Positions 2,034-13,164 are shown, counted from the stretch's first letter. The stretch: DNA of 14,452 nt from a virus (IMGVR_UViG_2700989509_000022), one strand, 5' to 3'. Translations and numbers: made by a program. Notes: generated by a model from the sequence alone, not told the origin.

Positions 2034-2678
2034 TTAAATCAAATGAATGTCATCATCCAATAATTCATTAGTAGTAATACTACCTTTTTTGAAAAAATTT
2101 TCATTTGCCTCAGCAATTTTTGCATCATTAACAAATTCATCACACATCCCAAAATAATGAAAAAATCTATTTAGTTTACATATTCCAATGGTATAGTGCC
2201 CTTTAGGTGTTTTGTCCACATAAACACGATTTGCTTTTATAATATGCATCTCATAATCATCTATATGTGGATGAACGATGCGAAATGATGCAGATGCAGT
2301 TGGATAGTTTTTGCGCCGCCCCCCATTTATTACGGGTTCAAATAACACTTCATTTTTACCTTTGAATTCATTGCAGTCAGGACATACTACACATAGATTC
2401 TTAGGTTCAAAAATAAAACATAGATATTGAGATTTTGGCACAATATGCTCTATAGGAGCAGCTTGTGCAGCTCTTACCCCAATAGGCTCATGACAATATA
2501 CACATTCTAGCTTTTGTTCTTCTCTGTAATGATTTCTAATTTCTGCACGGAGAACTTGCAAATCATCATCTCCCCAGTTGGTATGCTTAAAATCTGGAGA
2601 AGACAATTTTTTCTCAATAATATCTAATGACTCTGCGCTGAATCTAATTGGATTTTTAATTTTTGGCATAAATTTCAC
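2034..2678 (-). CDS. HNH endonuclease, PtuB-like (Septu-like nuclease component)
   Basis: CVYCHEP ... IEHIVPKS ... CVVCPDCNEFKGKN gives CxxC, a catalytic His and CxxCxxCN, i.e. an HNH ββα-metal motif. Visibly AT-rich. Start is GTG at 2678 or ATG at 2669, with AGGTG upstream. Overlaps the upstream ATPase by 14-23 nt. Confidence 0.7.
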   Translation of the reverse strand: MKFMPKIKNPIRFSAESLDIIEKKLSSPDFKHTNWGDDDLQVLRAEIRNHYREEQKLECVYCHEPIGVRAAQAAPIEHIVPKSQYLCFIFEPKNLCVVCPDCNEFKGKNEVLFEPVINGGRRKNYPTASASFRIVHPHIDDYEMHIIKANRVYVDKTPKGHYTIGICKLNRFFHYFGMCDEFVNDAKIAEANENFFKKGSITTNELLDDDIHLI

Positions 2679-4029
2679 ACACCTGAGATACGGAATTTAC
2701 GAGTTCATTAATAGGGTCATTACTATTAACGTTTTCAAGGAGAAGCTGGAGTTGTTTTAATTCACGCCAATTATCATCTGTTACTAACTTAGCAGTCTTA
2801 ACTTTTGAAAGTAAATTGAAAGCTAATCTGGCAATGTATTCATTCATAATGCCAGGGGCATCAAATAGTTCCGCAAGTTGATAGTCTGCAGACCGGTTGC
2901 TAAAGTATTTTGCTTTATAAAGATAACTTTTCGACAAAGATGTTATATAACAACCTTTATTCGGCAAATTGGATATTATTTGTGGTGAATGAGTTGCAAT
3001 TATGAATTGACAACCTGAGTAAGTTAAAAATGCTTTTGTTAACATAATGATAAACTCTTCCTGCCATCGAGGATGCAAGCTTATTTCCGGTTCATCAATT
3101 AGTATTATAGAACCATCAGTTATATGCCCTGCAATTCCAAGCAACATCACTAATAAACATTGTTCTCCCGAGCTCGCACGTTTAAGTGACATGGGACCAT
3201 AGCTTTTTTTTATGAGTCGCATATCCATCAATCTCATGAAGCCAGCGTTCATAAGTTTAAGAATTGATCTAGAAAAATAATTATTCGCATAAGTCGAGCC
3301 AACCAATGTTTCACCATTGGTAAAATCGACTGACAAGGTTACAGCCCTACGTTCAGGTTCAAATCGATTAATTTCAACCAGTGCTTCGTAAATATCATGA
3401 CGTGATTCGGAGTTTAACTTTAAGAGACTCTCAATATTCTTCCTGTCAATTTTTATATTGTATTTTAAATATAACTCCTTAACTTCCGTTAATATCTCAT
3501 CTGAATATACACCAATGAAGTTATAGTCAGGAGTGTCCGGTCCGTTGTAAGTTGGTTTAAATACAAACTCTATATGGGGCTCAAAATCAATAGAATGAAA
3601 AACATCGAGTAAATTTGCAGGATTTTCTGAATAAGCAAGTTTCTCTAGCCAACCTCTCGCTGCTGAAGATAAAAGGGATACGGCATTTGATACGCCGAAG
3701 GGGCCTTCTCCACGCATACCCACATAGCGATAATTATTTTCTTTCCTTTGGTGATTTAATGACCTACGCCCTGGAGGGAATTTATCGAATGGGCTGGTAG
3801 ATACGGCAATTAACTTTGGTGTTATTTCTCTGTCAAATAATGGATTAAAAGTTTTCAAGAAATGAACATCTTGAATACAGTCTTTAGCAATCTGAGATAA
3901 CAATCTGCTTTTTCCAACGCCATTTTTACCTACAATTACTGTAAAAATATTCGCATTATCAGAAACATCACCTTCTACAGCAAGTTTTAAGGTTCGACTA
4001 TCATGATGGGTATAATATAGTCTTTTCAT
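2656..4029 (-). CDS. ABC/AAA_21-type ATPase, PtuA-like (Septu-like ATPase component)
   Basis: Walker A VGKNGVGKS, signature-like ASSGEQ, Walker B IILIDEPEISLHP and H-loop IIATHSPQI in a 457-aa ORF. AT-rich, and the stop overlaps the start of the HNH gene. Confidence 0.75.
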   Translation of the reverse strand: MKRLYYTHHDSRTLKLAVEGDVSDNANIFTVIVGKNGVGKSRLLSQIAKDCIQDVHFLKTFNPLFDREITPKLIAVSTSPFDKFPPGRRSLNHQRKENNYRYVGMRGEGPFGVSNAVSLLSSAARGWLEKLAYSENPANLLDVFHSIDFEPHIEFVFKPTYNGPDTPDYNFIGVYSDEILTEVKELYLKYNIKIDRKNIESLLKLNSESRHDIYEALVEINRFEPERRAVTLSVDFTNGETLVGSTYANNYFSRSILKLMNAGFMRLMDMRLIKKSYGPMSLKRASSGEQCLLVMLLGIAGHITDGSIILIDEPEISLHPRWQEEFIIMLTKAFLTYSGCQFIIATHSPQIISNLPNKGCYITSLSKSYLYKAKYFSNRSADYQLAELFDAPGIMNEYIARLAFNLLSKVKTAKLVTDDNWRELKQLQLLLENVNSNDPINELVNSVSQVCEIYAKN

Positions 4030-4413
4030 TTTATTTTTCTCTCATTAAAATGCTCTTAATTAAGAATACCTATGCCTTTAACAGGCTCATAGTTATGATT
4101 TGTGATGCTTTCAAAAGGGTATGTAACTAAGTATTGAACTCTACACCTAAGATTCTAAGATTTTTAAATTAAAGTAGTTAAACATGCTTTTGATTGTACT
4201 CATTCTATGTCCATCGTTGCTGCATGTCTAGATATCGTGCCCCGCTATTGTTATGTAATGATATGATGGACGCCCTGTCTGAAGCAGCCAGTGAAATATT
4301 TTTACTGTCTGCGTTTTCTACAGGAGTAAATCACATGAGCACAATCAGAGTTGTTGGTATTGATATTGACCTGTGCCCAATTTTTTGAGACATATATTGG
4401 TACGCTCTTGGCA

Positions 4414-4435
4414 CAGGGCTGCTGCTGCAGCCCTG
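4414..4435. repeat. Perfect 9-bp inverted repeat with 4-nt loop (CAGGGCTGC-TGCT-GCAGCCCTG)
   Basis: Read directly; lies within 10 nt of the stop of the recombinase remnant on the minus strand. No U-tract, so not a canonical terminator. Confidence 0.6.
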
Positions 4436-4441
4436 ACAGCT

Positions 4442-5010
4442 TTAGACTTCGATCGATTCAGAGATCTCTAATGCATCATCAACTTCTATACCCAGATAAC
4501 GAACTGTGCTTTCCGTTTTCTTATGGCCCAACGGAAGTTGGATCACCCGGAGATTCTTAGTTTTCTTGCAGACAAGGCAAGGTTTTGTTCTTCTCATGGA
4601 ATGTGTGCTGTAAAGCGAATCTTCGAGACCAAGCTTTTCTCCCCCCTATGAAAGATTCGGTTATATTGCAGGATTGATATGTGTTGGTTAGTACCGACCC
4701 GAGATCGGAACAAGTAGTCTTTACTGCGTAAATTGCCAAGCTTTATCAATGCAGAAACAGCTTCTCTTGTCCCTTTGGTTATCTCAAATTGGATAGGACT
4801 GCCAGTTTTTCAGTTGCAGCACCGTAGCTCTGCTTGAAACCGAGCTAAATCACGCGTTTTACCTTCCAGTTCAAGCCGGATTTGGAGCCCCCAGATATGA
4901 GATATCTGAAGTGGTCTTTTTGGGCCTATGATACTGTCTTTGTTCCTCGGTGACGTATTCATACTCAAATCTCCTGCAATGTGGAAGATTTGAGTATGGT
5001 TGTCTCTCAA
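4442..5010 (-). pseudogene. Decayed tyrosine recombinase/integrase with at least two frameshifts
   Basis: Minus-strand translation ending at stop 4442..4444 gives KNLRVIQLPLGHKKTESTVRYLGIEVDDALEISESIEV, a typical tyrosine-recombinase C-terminus (compare Xer DLRVIQELLGH...Y). The preceding frame (4557..4739) carries RRFALQHTFHEKNKTLPCLQEN, the HxxR box region. No single long ORF remains; the 4810..5010 piece is in a third frame. Confidence 0.55.
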
Positions 5011-5067
5011 GAGCGAAATAGGTCAACTATAACTAGTTGTTGTGCATGTACGAATTCTGCCAATTAA

Positions 5068-5910
5068 TTATTGACAATAAAAAATTCTGGAATGTTCGAA
5101 ATCATCATATCGAATTATAATCTGGTTGACTGCATCTATTGTTGGCGCCATTTCAGTTATAATATCTCGATAACCTAAAGAGTTAAATACATTTACTAAG
5201 GCCTCACACCGCAGGCCAATAGCAATTACGACATTATAAATTGCCAGCCGTTTATTTTCTTGTTTAACTGCAAGAGTGAGTTCGATAGCAGTAGTTTTAT
5301 CGCTTTGGATTGCATTATATAGAGATACTATATTTGCCATATCATCAGAGAATGTATGTATTGAATCACAAAGAGGGACGTAATAGGCATGATAGTGTGT
5401 TTCCCAGCCAATTACTTCGAAAAGCTTTTTGGTTCCAGGATATTCAGGTGTATTTGGCCACAATCTATTAAACATATCAGTTAGCTCTTTTCCGATACGA
5501 ATCCTTTCATCTGCTGCTGGATTAGTCATTTCTTTGGATTTTAAACACTCCAGCCACCGTTTCCCATTACTATGAACTAATTTCTTACTACCCTTGAGTA
5601 ATGCTTGTGCATTTTTTCCATCATCAATTGCTATATAAAATTGATTGGCAGCCTGTTCCATTATAACTCTAGTTAATACTTCCGATGCTGAAAAGGCTCC
5701 GGTACTCAAAGAAAATATAGCCTGATTACTAAGTTCATTCAGTACATTAAAGTAATGTAAAACCATCAATTTTTGTTCCACCCCCTTTAGGTTATCTATT
5801 TTATTTTTATGCCTCTCAAATTTCGCATGGATATATTTATTTATCGCGGCTATTTTTTTTACATCTTCGTCGAAATCAAACGGGCAACGTCCAAACGATT
5901 TTTTCCTCAT
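5068..5910 (-). CDS. Hypothetical protein (280 aa), AT-rich cargo gene of unknown function
   Basis: ATG at 5910 with AGGAGG 5 nt upstream. Composition differs from the flanking prophage genes. I recognise no catalytic motif. Confidence 0.8.
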   Translation of the reverse strand: MRKKSFGRCPFDFDEDVKKIAAINKYIHAKFERHKNKIDNLKGVEQKLMVLHYFNVLNELSNQAIFSLSTGAFSASEVLTRVIMEQAANQFYIAIDDGKNAQALLKGSKKLVHSNGKRWLECLKSKEMTNPAADERIRIGKELTDMFNRLWPNTPEYPGTKKLFEVIGWETHYHAYYVPLCDSIHTFSDDMANIVSLYNAIQSDKTTAIELTLAVKQENKRLAIYNVVIAIGLRCEALVNVFNSLGYRDIITEMAPTIDAVNQIIIRYDDFEHSRIFYCQ

Positions 5911-6349
5911 ATATTCCTCCTGTTTTACAATCTCCCATAAGTTGGAAAATTATACACTGGAGATTACCTATAAATAACTGCGCACGATAGCTAGTCAGTG
6001 CAAGAAGTACAACCAAGTGAACGGTGCGTATCAGATACCTAGCTTAAAGTTCGCGATAGCCGTACTCTGTGTATTAGCTCAGACATTACCTGACAGGTTG
6101 AGTAGATAGAATCGAATCAAAGCTGACAGTCTGGTTTGGACTGTGGGGTCAACCGATGGATGCAACACACAGCGATCTACAGACATTACTAACATAGCGG
6201 TGTATTAATCATCGGGGAGCAGATCAGACTAACATTAAGCATTAGTAGTAATTTGCAGAGCATCCGTTTCTTACACAAAGCAAACCCCCACGCTAGCCCA
6301 ACCCTGTGCCACACAATGTCAATTCACATCTGAACTAATGCTCTTTAAT

Positions 6350-6624
6350 CTAGTAACGTCTAAAATATCGAACATTTCCCTGATAAAATGCCAGTATGCG
6401 CTGCATAACTTCACTCATTGTGGTGGTTTCTTCCGGCAGTTCTGCCTGCGCTGGCTGTTCCTGCTGAACGTTGTTATAAGCCACACGCCAGGTGTACGCG
6501 CTTTTATCAACAAAACCAGCCTTTTTCAGTTCCCATAGTTCGTTCAGCACTTCTTCACGCGCGCAGCAAGTTCTATGGATGTGGCTTTTCCCATTGCTTT
6601 CAGTGCGTCAAAAACAGTCTCCAT
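6350..6624 (-). pseudogene. Ren-like winged-helix protein gene, apparent single-base frameshift
   Basis: ATG at 6624 with GGGAGG 6 nt upstream gives [26 protein letters not shown] then TGA. The adjacent frame continues [26 protein letters not shown]...[18 protein letters not shown] with no ATG. The joined product resembles lambda Ren as I recall it, and the gene sits directly after the P-like gene as ren does in lambda. Confidence 0.5.
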
Positions 6625-9750: not shown

Positions 9751-10668
9751 ATGTACAGAAAACAGCAGCTCATACATTGCATTCTGTGCTGCGAGAAATC
9801 GGGAAAGATATTGCAAGCGAGCCAGCAACAGGAACCGGAAAAAGTCTGCACCGCCTGCGGTCAGAGCGGTGGCGGCAACTGCCCTGATTGTGGCGCGGTG
9901 ATGGGTGACACAACATACCAGGAAATATTCGATGAAGAGAATCAGCCTGAAGTTCAGGAAAATGATCCGGAGGAAATGGAAGGTACTGCACATCAGCACA
10001 AGGAGAACACTGGCGGCAATCAGCATCATGCCAGCGATAGTGAAACTGGCGAGGCGTCAGATCCCTTAATTAAGGCGAACAGTCATCATAATCTCACATC
10101 CACCAGCAGAGCGGGGATTCATCTGATGATCGACCTTGAAACCATGGGAAAAAATCCCGATGCCCCGATTATCTCAATAGGCGCAATATTTTTCGATCCG
10201 CAAACCGGAGATATGGGACCAGAATTTAGCAAGACCATCGATCTGGATACTGCTGGCGGAGTCATTGATCGTGACGTCATTAAATGGTGGCTGAAGCAAT
10301 CACGTGAAGCGCAGTCTGCCATTATGACCGATGAAATCCCGTTAGATGATGCACTACTGCAATTGCGGGAATTTATCGACGAAAACTCCGGTGAATTTTT
10401 TGTTCAGGTCTGGGGTAATGGGGCCAACTTCGACAACGTGATTTTACGCCGTTCATACGAACGACAGGGTATCCCCTGCCCGTGGCGCTACAGCAACGAT
10501 CGCGATGTACGCACAATCGTTGAGCTGGGGAAAGCCATAGACTTCGATGCCAGAACTGCTATCCCATTCGAAGGTGAGCACCATAATGCACTTGATGACG
10601 CTCGTTACCAGGCAAAATACGTTTCAGCTATCTGGCAAAAACTGATCCCGAGTCAGGCTGATTTTTAA
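9751..10668 (+). CDS. DEDDh 3'-5' exonuclease-domain protein with Cys-rich/acidic N-terminal region; start uncertain
   Basis: Exo motifs MIDLET (D-x-E), WGNGANFD and HHNALDDA (H-x4-D). Possible starts: 9751 (no SD; CxxCC...CxxC...CxxC zinc-ribbon-like), 10126 (MIDLETMG with GGGGA upstream), or a frameshifted fusion with the 54-codon ORF at 9726..9887, which has a good RBS. Confidence 0.7.
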   Translation: MYRKQQLIHCILCCEKSGKILQASQQQEPEKVCTACGQSGGGNCPDCGAVMGDTTYQEIFDEENQPEVQENDPEEMEGTAHQHKENTGGNQHHASDSETGEASDPLIKANSHHNLTSTSRAGIHLMIDLETMGKNPDAPIISIGAIFFDPQTGDMGPEFSKTIDLDTAGGVIDRDVIKWWLKQSREAQSAIMTDEIPLDDALLQLREFIDENSGEFFVQVWGNGANFDNVILRRSYERQGIPCPWRYSNDRDVRTIVELGKAIDFDARTAIPFEGEHHNALDDARYQAKYVSAIWQKLIPSQADF

Positions 10669-10720: not shown

Positions 10721-10930
10721 ATGGCTATGAGCAGCTTATTTTTAACCGAAGATGAATTGCTAATATTAACAGGCTGCAAATATGCAAGCCACCAGCGAAA
10801 ATGGTTAATGGAAAACGGGCTTCCGTTCTATACCAATCGTAGTGGCAAACCGATTGTCAGCCGGGATCTATTTACCTGCAATAAAACTTTACCACCACGC
10901 GAGGTAGAGCCGAATTTTGGTGCAATCTGA
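10721..10930 (+). CDS. xis: Excisionase-like protein (69 aa, DUF4224-like)
   Basis: Small ORF immediately upstream of int; its TGA overlaps the int ATG (TGATG). LTEDELLILTGCKYASHQRKWLMENGLPFY resembles lambdoid Xis-position proteins (recalled). Confidence 0.65.
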   Translation: MAMSSLFLTEDELLILTGCKYASHQRKWLMENGLPFYTNRSGKPIVSRDLFTCNKTLPPREVEPNFGAI

Positions 10931-11955
10931 TGGGAAGACGAAGGAAAAATCCTGAACACGAAAAATTACCTCCAAATGTATACCCAAATAAATATAGTTA
11001 TGTATGGAAACCAACATCCAGAGAATCTGTAACACTAACCGCCATCAAGGATGGTTTAGCTGCTTTATGGAAAAAGTATGAGGAAACTGTAAATAATCAC
11101 GATCGTGCAATGACATTCGGTCGCTTGTGGGAAAAATTCCTCGCCAGCGCCTATTACAGTGACCTTAGTCCAAGAACACAAAAAGATTATCTGCAACATC
11201 AAAAAAAGTTGCTTGCCGTATTCGGTAAGGTACCAGCGGATGCCATAAAACCAGAACACATCCGTCGATACATGGACAAAAGAGGGGAGCAGAGTAAAAC
11301 GCAAGCCAACCATGAAAAAAGCAGTATGTCCCGCGTTTACAGTTGGGGGTATGAGCGAGGTTACGTGAAGGGTAACCCATGTGCAGGTGTAAGTAAATTC
11401 AAGGCCAAAAACCGCGAACGATATGTAACCGACAAAGAATACCAGGCAGTATTAAGCGTTGCACCTCTTCCTGTTTTTATCGCAATGGAAATTGCCTATC
11501 TGTGTGCAGCGAGGGTTTCCGATGTGTTATCACTGAAATGGGAGCAGATTGGAAACGACGGGATCTTTATCCAGCAAGGGAAAACAGGGAAAAAACAGAT
11601 AAAAGCATGGAGTCCACGATTACAGGCGGCGATCGAAAAAGCAAAACAGTTACCAGCATCCGTCTATGTAATCAGCAATCAATATGGCAACCGATATATG
11701 TACAAAGGCTTTAACGAAATGTGGGTAGAAGCAAGAAATCGCGCAGGCAAAATTTCAGGTATTTTAACCGACTTCACCTTTCATGATCTGAAGGCGAAAG
11801 GAATTTCAGACTATGAAGGAAGCAGCCGGGATAAGCAACTTTTCTCTGGTCACAAAACCGAGGGGCAAGTGCTAATCTATGACAGGAAGGTTAAAGTTTC
11901 ACCAACACTTGATGTCCCGTTACCTGAAAATATTCCAAGAAAATATTCCAAGTAA
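10930..11955 (+). CDS. int: Tyrosine-recombinase phage integrase
   Basis: 341-aa ORF with C-terminal catalytic region (...FHDLKAKGISDY...SGHKTEGQVLIYDRK...), ending 52 bp from the 3' end of tRNA-Ser. Confidence 0.9.
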   Translation: MGRRRKNPEHEKLPPNVYPNKYSYVWKPTSRESVTLTAIKDGLAALWKKYEETVNNHDRAMTFGRLWEKFLASAYYSDLSPRTQKDYLQHQKKLLAVFGKVPADAIKPEHIRRYMDKRGEQSKTQANHEKSSMSRVYSWGYERGYVKGNPCAGVSKFKAKNRERYVTDKEYQAVLSVAPLPVFIAMEIAYLCAARVSDVLSLKWEQIGNDGIFIQQGKTGKKQIKAWSPRLQAAIEKAKQLPASVYVISNQYGNRYMYKGFNEMWVEARNRAGKISGILTDFTFHDLKAKGISDYEGSSRDKQLFSGHKTEGQVLIYDRKVKVSPTLDVPLPENIPRKYSK

Positions 11956-12007: not shown

Positions 12008-12097
12008 TGGCGGAGAGAGGGGGATTTGAACCCCCGGTGGAGTTGCCCCCACTCCGGTTTTCGAGACCGGTCCGTTCAGCCGCTCCGGCATCTCTCC
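12008..12097 (-). tRNA. serU: tRNA-Ser (anticodon CGA)
   Basis: Reverse complement reads GGAGAGATGCCGGAGCGGCTGAACGGACCGGTCTCGAAAACC...GGTTCAAATCCCCCTCTCTCCGCCA: type II tRNA with long variable arm, anticodon loop CUCGAAA, encoded CCA. The serU-mtfA-asnT context fits E. coli. Confidence 0.93.
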
Positions 12098-12190
12098 GTT
12101 CAGATGGTTGCCATGATGCCAGGAAATTTGGCATTTTAACAGTCCCTGTCCGTGCAATTTTGTTCAAGTGACGAGTTTGCGAGCAAAACG

Positions 12191-12988
12191 ATGATTAAGT
12201 GGCCCTGGAAAGTACAAGAATCAGCACATCAAACTGCCCTTCCCTGGCAGGAAGCACTATCGATCCCCCTTTTAACGGGTCTGACGGAACAGGAACAAAG
12301 CAAATTAGTCACTCTTGCCGAACGTTTTTTACAGCAAAAGCGGCTTGTTCCTTTACAGGGCTTTGAACTGGATTCATTAAGAAGCTGCCGGATAGCACTT
12401 CTATTTTGCCTACCCGTTCTGGAGTTAGGACTGGAATGGCTGGATGGTTTTCATGAAGTCTTAATTTATCCTGCGCCATTTGTGGTCGATGATGAATGGG
12501 AAGACGATATCGGTCTGGTGCATAACCAACGTATTGTTCAGTCAGGTCAGAGCTGGCAGCAAGGGCCTATCGTTTTGAACTGGTTGGATATACAAGATTC
12601 TTTTGATGCTTCTGGTTTTAACCTGATTATTCATGAAGTCGCTCATAAGCTGGACACCCGTAACGGCGATCGCGCCAGCGGAGTTCCCTTTATTCCGTTG
12701 CGTGAGGTTGCTGGCTGGGAACACGATCTTCATGCTGCAATGAACAACATTCAGGAAGAAATCGAATTGGTTGGCGAGAATGCGGCGAGCATTGATGCTT
12801 ATGCTGCCAGTGATCCTGCTGAATGTTTTGCCGTACTTTCTGAATATTTCTTTAGCGCCCCAGAACTTTTTGCTCCTCGTTTCCCTTCATTGTGGCAACG
12901 TTTCTGCCAATTTTATCAACAAGATCCTTTGCAGAGACTGCATCGCACTAATGATACAGACTCGTTTTCGGCGACGAATGTTCATTAA
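12191..12988 (+). CDS. mtfA: MtfA (Mlc titration factor A), zinc-dependent peptidase
   Basis: [22 protein letters not shown]... with HEVAHKLD (HEXXH) motif, 265 aa, located between tRNA-Ser and tRNA-Asn as in E. coli. The track ORF starts 13 codons upstream at 12152. Confidence 0.9.
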
Positions 12989-13088: not shown

Positions 13089-13164
13089 TCCTCTGTAGTT
13101 CAGTCGGTAGAACGGCGGACTGTTAATCCGTATGTCACTGGTTCGAGTCCAGTCAGAGGAGCCA
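13089..13164 (+). tRNA. asnT: tRNA-Asn (anticodon GUU)
   Basis: TCCTCTGTAGTTCAGTCGGTAGAACGGCGGACTGTTAATCCGTATGTCACTGGTTCGAGTCCAGTCAGAGGAGCCA, 76 nt, anticodon loop CUGUUAA. Locus identity is inferred from the mtfA neighbour. Confidence 0.93.

Follow-up and report, generated by a model that had tools for sequence, protein, structure and literature searches.

The minus strand of the DNA analyzed here carries, at positions 4442 to 4962, the inactivated gene of a 200-residue tyrosine recombinase that consists of a catalytic domain only, an identification that the analyses below confirm. The window, by which we mean the whole stretch of 14,452 nucleotides, is Escherichia coli DNA and belongs to a lambdoid (Rac/Qin-like) prophage. 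In our view the best explanation, and a probable one, is that the gene is a dead member of a group of recombinases associated with cassette arrays built on short core sites, and that the window is a fossil of this system. The intact cargo genes on either side of such a dead gene would then illustrate how mobile cargo becomes a fixed part of a phage genome.

Results

A dead recombinase gene among intact cargo in a lambdoid prophage

Read from right to left, the window begins with tRNA-Asn, mtfA and tRNA-Ser(cga) beside an intact integrase gene of 341 codons (10930-11955). Leftward follow a Rv2179c-like exonuclease gene, repressor/Cro-like genes, YdaT and the DnaT-like and P replication genes (to about 6657), and then a DUF1627 remnant, the pseudogene region, sok/hokD (sok at 1716-1889) and rem. 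E. coli E2348/69, FORC 064 and 16 further complete genomes contain near-identical DNA. The pseudogene and its intact neighbors are as follows:

5068-5910, minus strand: intact DUF5677 cargo gene, 280 residues, upstream of the pseudogene (Pfam PF18928, E 3.3e-9; no PADLOC match)
4442-4962, minus strand: tyrosine-recombinase pseudogene, ATG at 4962 and TAA at 4444-4442 (tblastn E 3.5e-74; pseudogene in PGAP)
2656-4029, minus strand: intact gene of Septu PtuA, an AAA ATPase of 457 residues (PADLOC E 1.2e-165; Pfam AAA_21/AAA_15)
2034-2678, minus strand: intact gene of Septu PtuB, an HNH nuclease of 214 residues (PADLOC E 1.1e-83; Pfam HNH)

The PtuA and PtuB genes overlap on the same strand and provide the adjacent PtuA ATPase and PtuB HNH nuclease by which Septu is recognized; they form a predicted type I Septu pair with a presumed role in defense.

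Three lesions inactivate the gene

Three-frame translation of the minus strand shows the recombinase divided between frames, without an intact ORF. When the window was searched by tblastn with an intact homologue (L003:8043-8645) as the query, residues 1 to 132 aligned within a single frame to 4962-4648, the alignment containing an internal gap and a stop, and residues 137 to 200 aligned to 4636-4445 in another frame. The joint E value of both segments is 3.5e-74; the runner-up match in the window has an E value of 0.73. An earlier, sequence-only reading had placed the C-terminal catalytic region of a minus-strand tyrosine recombinase, split across frames and lacking an intact ORF, at 4442-5010. 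The recombinase, its strand and its broken frames are borne out, and catalytic motifs are indeed readable; what lies there, though, is the entire gene with an internal deletion, and the interval was slightly overlong at its upstream end, the gene running from the ATG at 4962 to the stop codon at 4444-4442.

Alignment of the DNA with four intact genes, to which the pseudogene is about 91% identical in nucleotide sequence, mapped the lesions:

4842-4848, minus strand: 82-bp internal deletion, junction at 4848/4847, its placement ambiguous within these bases (alignments to the four intact genes)
4810-4812, minus strand: 1-nt insertion at 4810 that creates an in-frame TGA at 4812-4810 (alignments and tblastn)
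4641-4648, minus strand: 1-nt deletion in a G run, at about 4645/4644, that causes a -1 frameshift (alignments to intact genes)

The 82-bp deletion takes away about codons 39 to 66, including the KLRGCDL box with the catalytic Arg-I (R51), a residue that is invariant in the family alignment (A4). H148-x-x-R151 (HSMRR), H174 (LGH) and the tyrosine nucleophile Y183 (VRY) can still be read, and the complete catalytic set R-K-H-x-x-R-H/W-Y does not occur in one frame of the window copy. With Arg-I deleted, a stop acquired and the frame changed twice, the window copy is a pseudogene of a family member, and the recombinase is dead, as the sequence-only reading had proposed. The ratio of nonsynonymous to synonymous differences is raised in the pseudogene (19:25 to 29:26, about 1) compared with that among intact copies (9:27 to 24:34, 0.3 to 0.7). 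RefSeq/PGAP has a feature at exactly 4442-4962, [quoted passage not shown] (e.g., E2348C_RS06545), and the pseudogene per se is ordinary and was annotated before.

Could the resemblance be coincidental, or the locus be functional through recoding? The sole support for either is the absent intact ORF, and we dismiss both. Once the frames are corrected, a recombinase match is found across the full length (E 3.5e-74), which rules out a chance resemblance of motifs. Frameshifting would be unable to rescue function because the invariant catalytic Arg is lost with the 82 bp, and this loss, together with the raised nonsynonymous-to-synonymous ratio, rules out a functional gene expressed via recoding.

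All 18 E. coli genomes with at least 80% coverage of a 4300-5100 query are at least 99% identical to it and have the same lesions, and the same is true of all 11 IMG/VR contigs with DUF5677. Because all these copies are near-identical and share their lesions, the decay is older than the spread of the prophage lineage. The segment had no match among the INPHARED phages. An intact orthologue with the same neighbors was sought, and every copy with DUF5677 and PtuAB as neighbors bears the lesions of the window. About 780 further E. coli genomes carry an intact homologue with 87 to 92% nucleotide identity to the pseudogene.

The intact homologues form a large family of small recombinases

The intact homologue is a 603-bp gene for a protein of 200 residues and was found in about 800 of 5426 E. 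coli genomes. The contexts of these copies include islands of B2 strains (e.g., Nissle 1917), a CP4-57-like region and a conjugative plasmid, and strain WCHEC035123 (locus L004) has an intact copy in the same prophage slot as the window. The family is very large and unusually conserved: it comprises at least 8000 clusters (90% identity) at an E value of ≤1e-10, is carried by at least 547 GTDB species representatives and retains 76 to 96% identity across Escherichia, Proteus, Providencia, Pantoea, Idiomarina and Pseudoalteromonas.

The Pfam model Phage_integrase (PF00589) matches intact homologues with 54 to 69 bits against a cutoff of 27.1 (best E value, 5e-19), and the match is to the catalytic domain only; arm-binding and core-binding domains are absent from the 200-residue protein. 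No named NCBIfam family was reached at its cutoff by the intact protein, XerA included. The XerC and XerD models gave 49.6 and 32.1 bits against cutoffs of 335 and 330 and matched in their C-terminal halves only, and the IntI models (TIGR02249/PRK15417) gave 15.9 to 17.6 bits against cutoffs of 265 and 435. With scores so far under the cutoffs, the Xer or integron-integrase identity that had been considered at the outset is abandoned. Models of FimB/FimE-type invertases (PRK09871/PRK09870) likewise reached only 18 to 27 bits against cutoffs of 221 to 222, the PRK09871 match being full-length but weak (E 2e-6 to 8e-6). At the sequence level, matches in the PDB are to Xer proteins only (E about 1e-3). 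The AF2 model, which is of low confidence (pLDDT 63.6), gave generic Xer/Cre/lambda-Int matches with Foldseek at a TM score of about 0.3. The pseudogene family and the prophage integrase at 10930-11955 are not detectably similar (BLASTP E 0.24) and differ in their Pfam domains, in agreement with the earlier claim that the two are distinct.

Core sites divide the surroundings of intact genes into cassettes

In Enterobacterales, a 24-bp core, GTCCGCTC-8 bp-GAGCGGAC, with inverted 8-bp arms recurs around intact recombinase genes. Two types of spacer occur in it, L (CTCGCTCA) and R (TGTGCCAG); compared as its reverse complement, the R spacer departs from the L spacer at 2 of 8 positions. As many as 11 cores lie in 20 kb where about 1 would be expected, and matches that arise by chance carry spacers of unrelated sequence. 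The cores are intergenic and nearly always of a single polarity relative to the recombinase gene, and they lay out arrays that can be written as R [1-3 genes] L·R [genes] L·R ... L-rec-R ... [genes] L(·R).

A cassette consists of one to three genes, in either orientation, between an R-core and an L-core. The recombinase gene is bounded in the opposite way, by an L-core upstream and an R-core downstream, and hence sits in the linker of an L·R junction. Adjacent cassettes are joined by an L-core, about 12 to 18 bp and an R-core, which together make an imperfect palindrome of about 72 bp; the spacing between the 30-mers is 12 bp in 23 of 34 junctions. The L·R junction was found in 816 E. coli genomes, compared with 802 for the recombinase, and always in unannotated DNA. 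Rfam has no family for the sites or the hairpins. An attC-like model, in which the junctions fold into hairpins, was not supported, as the L- and R-cores of a junction are not more complementary to each other (18.9 of 30 positions) than non-partners are (20.4). Given this lack of excess complementarity, and given that single cores are also found alone, each with complete inverted arms, we regard the cores as likely double-strand sites and not as attC-like folded sites.

The cargo of the arrays is mixed. Among 81 cassette ORFs, those related to defense include SIR2-HerA (two), PD-T7-1 (two), PD-T7-5 (two), HEC-08, a Lit-like Peptidase_U49 and DUF4238 (three), and others encode ArsB/ArsR (arsenic resistance), LysR and, among metabolic functions, NUDIX, GNAT, SDR and MFS proteins.

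The polarity of the cores bears on the possibility that the gene is the relic of a FimB/FimE-like invertase and that the module was an invertible switch, like that of hin, toggling neighboring genes. A length of 200 residues and the weak full-length matches to invertase models (PRK09871, E 2e-6 to 8e-6) would suit such an enzyme, the L- and R-cores around the gene are mutually inverted, and two loci (L015 and L017) contain site blocks of reversed polarity, showing that L x R events take place or that independent arrays exist. The match, however, amounts to 25 to 27 bits against a cutoff of 222, and L x R exchange should be hindered by the spacers, which disagree at 2 of 8 positions when aligned in inverted orientation. 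Moreover, in the 16 Enterobacterales loci that were mapped, the module's flanking cores, wherever detected, point the same way relative to the gene; the flanking array sites are equally uniform in 13 of the 16, the reversed ones being the blocks in L015 and L017 and one site in L006. In the slot variants examined, the cores at the boundaries of the prophage slot are also constant in orientation, and what varies between loci is which cassettes are gained, lost or replaced, with no inversion observed. An invertase relic thus strikes us as very unlikely.

The recombinase gene and its edges are conserved as a module

Homology between loci extends from about 65 bp 5' of the ATG of the intact recombinase gene to about 50 bp past its stop codon, and the flanks are unrelated. 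It begins within the L-core and stops within the R-core, to within 0 to 3 nt of the latter. Directly 5' of the ATG lies a Shine-Dalgarno (SD)/anti-SD hairpin, which pairs the SD in 66 of 77 distinct members; shuffling of the upstream sequence gives an expectation of 48. Stem changes between lineages are compensatory (AAATCTCC/GGAGATTT, GTCCTCC/GGAGGAC and CAGACTCC/GGAGTCTG), and we infer that sequestration of the SD represses translation of the recombinase. A GC-rich hairpin follows the stop codon of the module, at 4414-4435 in the window copy. The upstream hairpin is also preserved:

4963-4995, minus strand: anti-SD/SD hairpin ACTCAAATCTTCC-N8-GGAGATTTGAGT, with one mutation relative to intact copies (conserved family-wide)

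Inverted repeats (IRs) mark both edges of the module, matching at 15 to 16 of 16 or at 17 to 20 of 20 positions in many lineages (at most 13 in shuffles). Enterobacterales and Pseudomonas/Betaproteobacteria have different repeat sequences at the same position. Outside Enterobacterales the arrays are much sparser, and often the IR-gene-IR module is present alone.

The acting enzyme could in principle be a different one, either host XerC/XerD or a phage or plasmid helper, with the cores being real sites and the recombinase gene a frequent passenger cassette. Modules driven by host Xer have a precedent in the pdif modules of Acinetobacter, and many core-bearing arrays and slots lack the recombinase gene and yet differ in cargo (L102 and L103, for example). 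The recombinase gene nevertheless differs from the cargo in its arrangement, being bounded L...R and not R...L. Throughout Gamma- and Betaproteobacteria the gene stays between its two IRs, whose sequence covaries with the protein lineage, and the junction and the gene are present in near-equal numbers of E. coli genomes (816 and 802). The dif sites are 28-bp XerC-6 bp-XerD sites with an 11-6-11 architecture, to which the 8-8-8 core is unlike; pdif-type Xer modules were rejected on the same comparison with GTCCGCTC-8 bp-GAGCGGAC. We consider another enzyme unlikely and favor the recombinase itself as the enzyme that acts on the cores, a role that its embedding in the junction, its co-occurrence with the cores and the breakpoints described below all suggest.

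Breakpoints between related loci fall at cores

Strain UTI89 has an empty site, a single R-core (GTCCGCTTTGTGCCAAAGGCGGAC) between the same exact flanks that enclose a 4.3-kb array in Nissle. The Nissle array has an R-core at either end, and the right-hand R-core keeps the empty-site half. One cassette (WP_000161640.1) is found in three places: it adjoins the recombinase in an array on an E. coli plasmid (L006), lies 5 kb from the recombinase in an array of Erwinia aeris (L012; 92% over 1015 bp) and stands alone in a lambdoid prophage slot (L102). When the three are aligned, homology starts at the R-core spacer and is lost at the right arm of the L-core. Cassette 1 of L004 recurs between a junction and an L-core in a CP4-57-like island, and the HEC-08 cassette of Nissle occurs together with the recombinase in a second context, the ends of the match falling at cores. 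These comparisons show exchange of DNA precisely at the cores, including the insertion of a whole array at one R-core.

The comparison of Nissle with UTI89 resembles the attB, attL and attR of a 4.3-kb element, and a dead recombinase beside accessory and defense genes within a prophage is what the remnant integrase of a conventional integrative element (a satellite, a small island or a second prophage) would look like, with att sites at the ends and the repeated cores unrelated to it. Such an element is hard to reconcile with a 200-residue protein that has no arm-binding or core-binding domain, with a gene that lies mid-array between its own pair of cores instead of at an element end, and with internal sites every one to three genes, at which single cassettes move independently and leave breakpoints at internal cores. 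We rate this explanation as quite unlikely. The earlier idea of an element within an element is accordingly retained in part: there is foreign material in the prophage, but it does not amount to another phage or island that brought an integrase of its own. From the comparison of loci, the embedded material appears to be the fossil of a site-delimited gene-cassette array in a recurrent accessory slot of lambdoid prophages.

The prophage slot and the remains of its sites in the window

In related lambdoid prophages, the slot separates the replication genes (DUF977/DUF1627 side) from sok/hokD, with an R-core as its left boundary and an L-core (…TCGCTCAAAGCGGACTAG) as its right one. These boundary cores have the same orientation across the slot variants examined. 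The content of the slot ranges from three cassettes plus an intact recombinase (L004 and L089) to two genes (L103) or one (L102), and includes SMODS+SLATT with a recombinase pseudogene (L104) and an anti-phage dGTPase with a stub of the recombinase module (L106). Constant outer half-sites with changing content are the outcome expected of exchange at both R and L.

The window retains the following traces of sites and limits, found with a position weight matrix (PWM) or by comparison with related loci:

6259-6288, minus strand: decayed R-core GGGGTTTGCTTTGTGTAAGAAACGGATGCT at the left (replication-gene side) end of the array (PWM 17.1 bits)
6158-6258, minus strand: tentative ends of a first cassette whose gene is deleted, then a very degraded L-core at 6158-6187 (visual likeness to both ends of cassette 1 in L004; PWM -7.2, not significant)
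4999-5028, minus strand: degraded L-core at the 5' edge of the recombinase module, left arm destroyed (homologous position; PWM 0.2 bits, alone not significant)
4397-4426, minus strand: R-core (…CCCTGTGCCAAGAGCGTAC) at the 3' edge of the module, right arm with one mismatch, outer GTT lost (homologous position; PWM 0.3 bits, alone not significant)
1961-1962, no strand: right limit of the insert, backbone homology on the sok/hokD side resuming at 1961

Only one of these residual sites, the R-core remnant at 6259-6288, is statistically significant: it scores 17.1 bits, and 200 shuffles reached 11.5 at most. The PWM scores that rank next in the 4.5-kb segment are individually not significant and fall exactly on the two borders of the pseudogene (4397-4426 and, third in rank, 4999-5028); the R-core at 4397-4426 overlaps the GC hairpin at 4414-4435. 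On the left, window positions 6252-6415 correspond to L004 4695-4857 (81% over 165 bp), which comprises the R-core junction and the prophage flank, and the homology at this junction stops 5 to 7 nt beyond the core. On the right, window positions 1961-1 correspond to L004 10476-12436 with 97% identity, and the L-core of L004 lies 237 nt further in. The terminal right L-core of related prophages is absent from the right end of the window. An empty slot, in which the window's own left and right flanks would be joined, was seen in none of the complete E. coli genomes.

Taken together, the segment from about 6288 to 1962 is best read as a presumptive fossil array composed of a decayed R-core, DUF5677, the dead recombinase and PtuA/PtuB. 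DUF5677 and PtuAB may have arrived as cassettes; we infer this from their position, as the window has one significant site only and no right-end site. Among 90 loci examined, none has DUF5677, PtuA or PtuB as a site-flanked cassette. Since the recombinase is dead and the cores are mutated or deleted while the cargo is intact, the defense genes would now be locked into the prophage.

Discussion

Our work connects an annotated pseudogene with a type of gene array in which the positions of cores, cassettes and recombinase follow a common plan. How might such arrays work? We hypothesize that the recombinase binds the inverted 8-bp arms of a core, with strand exchange across the 8-bp spacer between them. 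Cassettes would then be integrated, excised or swapped through R x R and L x L events, in the manner of integron cassettes or of recombinase-mediated cassette exchange, and L x R events would be disfavored by spacers that disagree at 2 of 8 positions. The conserved SD-sequestering hairpin would hold translation of the recombinase low. In the window, Arg-I and the reading frame are lost, the left R-core and both cores of the module are mutated and the right L-core is deleted, which would leave the cargo fixed.

With somewhat more doubt than confidence, we propose that these arrays represent an unrecognized cassette platform of Proteobacteria that is integron-like and mechanistically distinct from integrons. 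Its 200-residue recombinase, encoded inside its own junction, would shuffle cassettes of one to three genes among islands, plasmids and prophage landing pads via heterospecific 24-bp L- and R-cores, and the platform would amount to recombinase-mediated cassette exchange as it occurs in nature. The novelty of the cassette system is probable and not certain because our coverage of the literature is limited to open full text; in this incompletely covered literature we found no description of the recombinase's site architecture or of its cassette arrays. The part of the tyrosine-recombinase classification considered here (PMC8138268) has no obviously corresponding subgroup.

If the proposal is correct, about 15% of E. 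coli genomes and hundreds of proteobacterial species carry a cassette exchange that is not an integron. It would move Septu, SIR2-HerA, PD-T7-1/5, dGTPase, SMODS-SLATT and HEC-08, together with other adaptive genes, between prophages, plasmids and islands, and would provide a concrete mechanism for the fast turnover of the "defense hotspots" of temperate phages. The L- and R-cores would serve as a simple signature by which new cargo and defense genes can be found, and a very small recombinase with short heterospecific sites might be of use in genome engineering. The window would represent an end state, in which recombinase and sites have decayed and the cargo has become fixed in the phage genome.

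The prophage slot is similar to the hotspots of P2/P4 phages and satellites in that a fixed position of the prophage backbone has highly variable anti-phage cargo (PMC9122126); the cargo between the replication genes and sok/hokD includes Septu, dGTPase, SMODS-SLATT and others. No dedicated recombination sites or recombinase were described as mediating exchange at the P2/P4 hotspots (Rousset et al. 2022, PMC9122126), whereas the slot described here is bounded by R- and L-cores and sometimes has the recombinase inside.

FimB/FimE invertases have a similar size of about 200 residues, are essentially a catalytic domain, act on short inverted repeats and provide the sole small-recombinase model that aligns over the full length. 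The family described here scores far under their cutoff and is associated with the turnover of cassettes and not with the inversion of a promoter segment.

The system would work like integrons and pdif modules but probably belongs to neither. As in the pdif modules of Acinetobacter plasmids, modules lie between two inverted short recombination sites, and a given module occurs in several replicons, its breakpoints falling at the sites. The differences are in the 8-8-8 arrangement of arms and spacer, with another sequence and two spacer types, in the dedicated small recombinase gene that is embedded in the arrays, and in the presence of the system in chromosomal islands and prophages besides plasmids.

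The likeness to integrons is the broadest. Both have a tyrosine recombinase with arrays of cassettes that hold one to a few genes and are mostly of promoter-less size, both have imperfect palindromes of about 70 bp between the cassettes, and both carry diverse adaptive cargo, much of it anti-phage, and in both, insertion at one resident site leaves the site repeated at both ends. The recombinase described here, however, has 200 residues, lacks the N-terminal domain and scores 16 to 17 bits against the IntI cutoff of 265. Its gene is located within a junction in the middle of the array, whereas the integron integrase gene is at one end beside attI, and the cassette genes are present in either orientation. 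Finally, the attC site is recognized as a folded single strand, whereas the junction described here consists of two independent 24-bp cores that are presumably of the double-strand type.

Decayed and paired copies of the recombinase

Pseudogenization of this 200-aa tyrosine recombinase seems to be recurrent. Independent decayed copies lie in the comparison loci L090 (6638-7240), L104 (a variant of the prophage slot; 2818-3217), and L016, L017 and L021 (~10001-10600). The copy of STEC1585 has a stop codon inside the gene, that of EC21Z-014 is partial and frameshifted, and those of Providencia heimbachae, Leclercia and Rahnella carry frame breaks or premature stops. A single array can also hold two diverged recombinase modules (~76 to 80% nucleotide identity), as seen in two of the loci:

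L008, 9995-10603 and 13850-14458: paired recombinase modules
L015, 1225-1827 and ~3900-4590: paired recombinase modules

Core polarity and an unrelated repeat

In L015 (5065-9736) and L017 (14067-15874), blocks of cores run in the polarity opposite to that of the recombinase gene. An inversion between an L-core and an R-core may have produced such blocks, or they may be independent arrays that abut one another. An unrelated repeat of ~170 bp (75 to 80% identity) recurs beside or within arrays of different genera:

L005, 7829-8007
L007, 5243-5417
L015, 3728-3908, 5516-5686 and 10990-11169

Edges of the insert and of the prophage

Directly past the right limit of the insert in the window lies sok with hokD, and every related prophage has this sok/hokD flank next to its cassette slot. 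An IS481-family element has inserted between hokD and PtuB in E2348/69 (L001, 5392-6480); the window is without it. Just beyond the left end of the array is a DUF1627 remnant, a second decayed gene of the region, which the RefSeq annotation of relatives gives as a frameshifted partial pseudogene. Farther along, the window has a 305-aa open reading frame at the place that a 2.4-kb exonuclease gene takes up in most related prophages. Most related genomes match the whole window in two pieces. The attachment site of the prophage is likely the tRNA-Ser(cga) gene, which directly follows the intact integrase, with mtfA and tRNA-Asn beyond it.

Window, 1716-1889, minus: sok antisense RNA (Rfam RF01794, 113 bits)
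Window, ~6400-6620, minus: DUF1627 gene remnant
Window, 9751-10668, plus: 305-aa open reading frame, Rv2179c-like 3'-5' exoribonuclease domain
Window, 12008-12097, minus: tRNA-Ser(cga)
Window, 12152-12988, plus: mtfA (Peptidase_M90)
Window, 13089-13164, plus: tRNA-Asn

The DUF5677 cargo gene

The DUF5677 gene of the insert (window 5068-5910, minus) had no match in PADLOC. According to a preprint (PMC12632615), the DUF5677 domain was picked for anti-phage testing and is enriched beside small serine recombinases in Bacillota.
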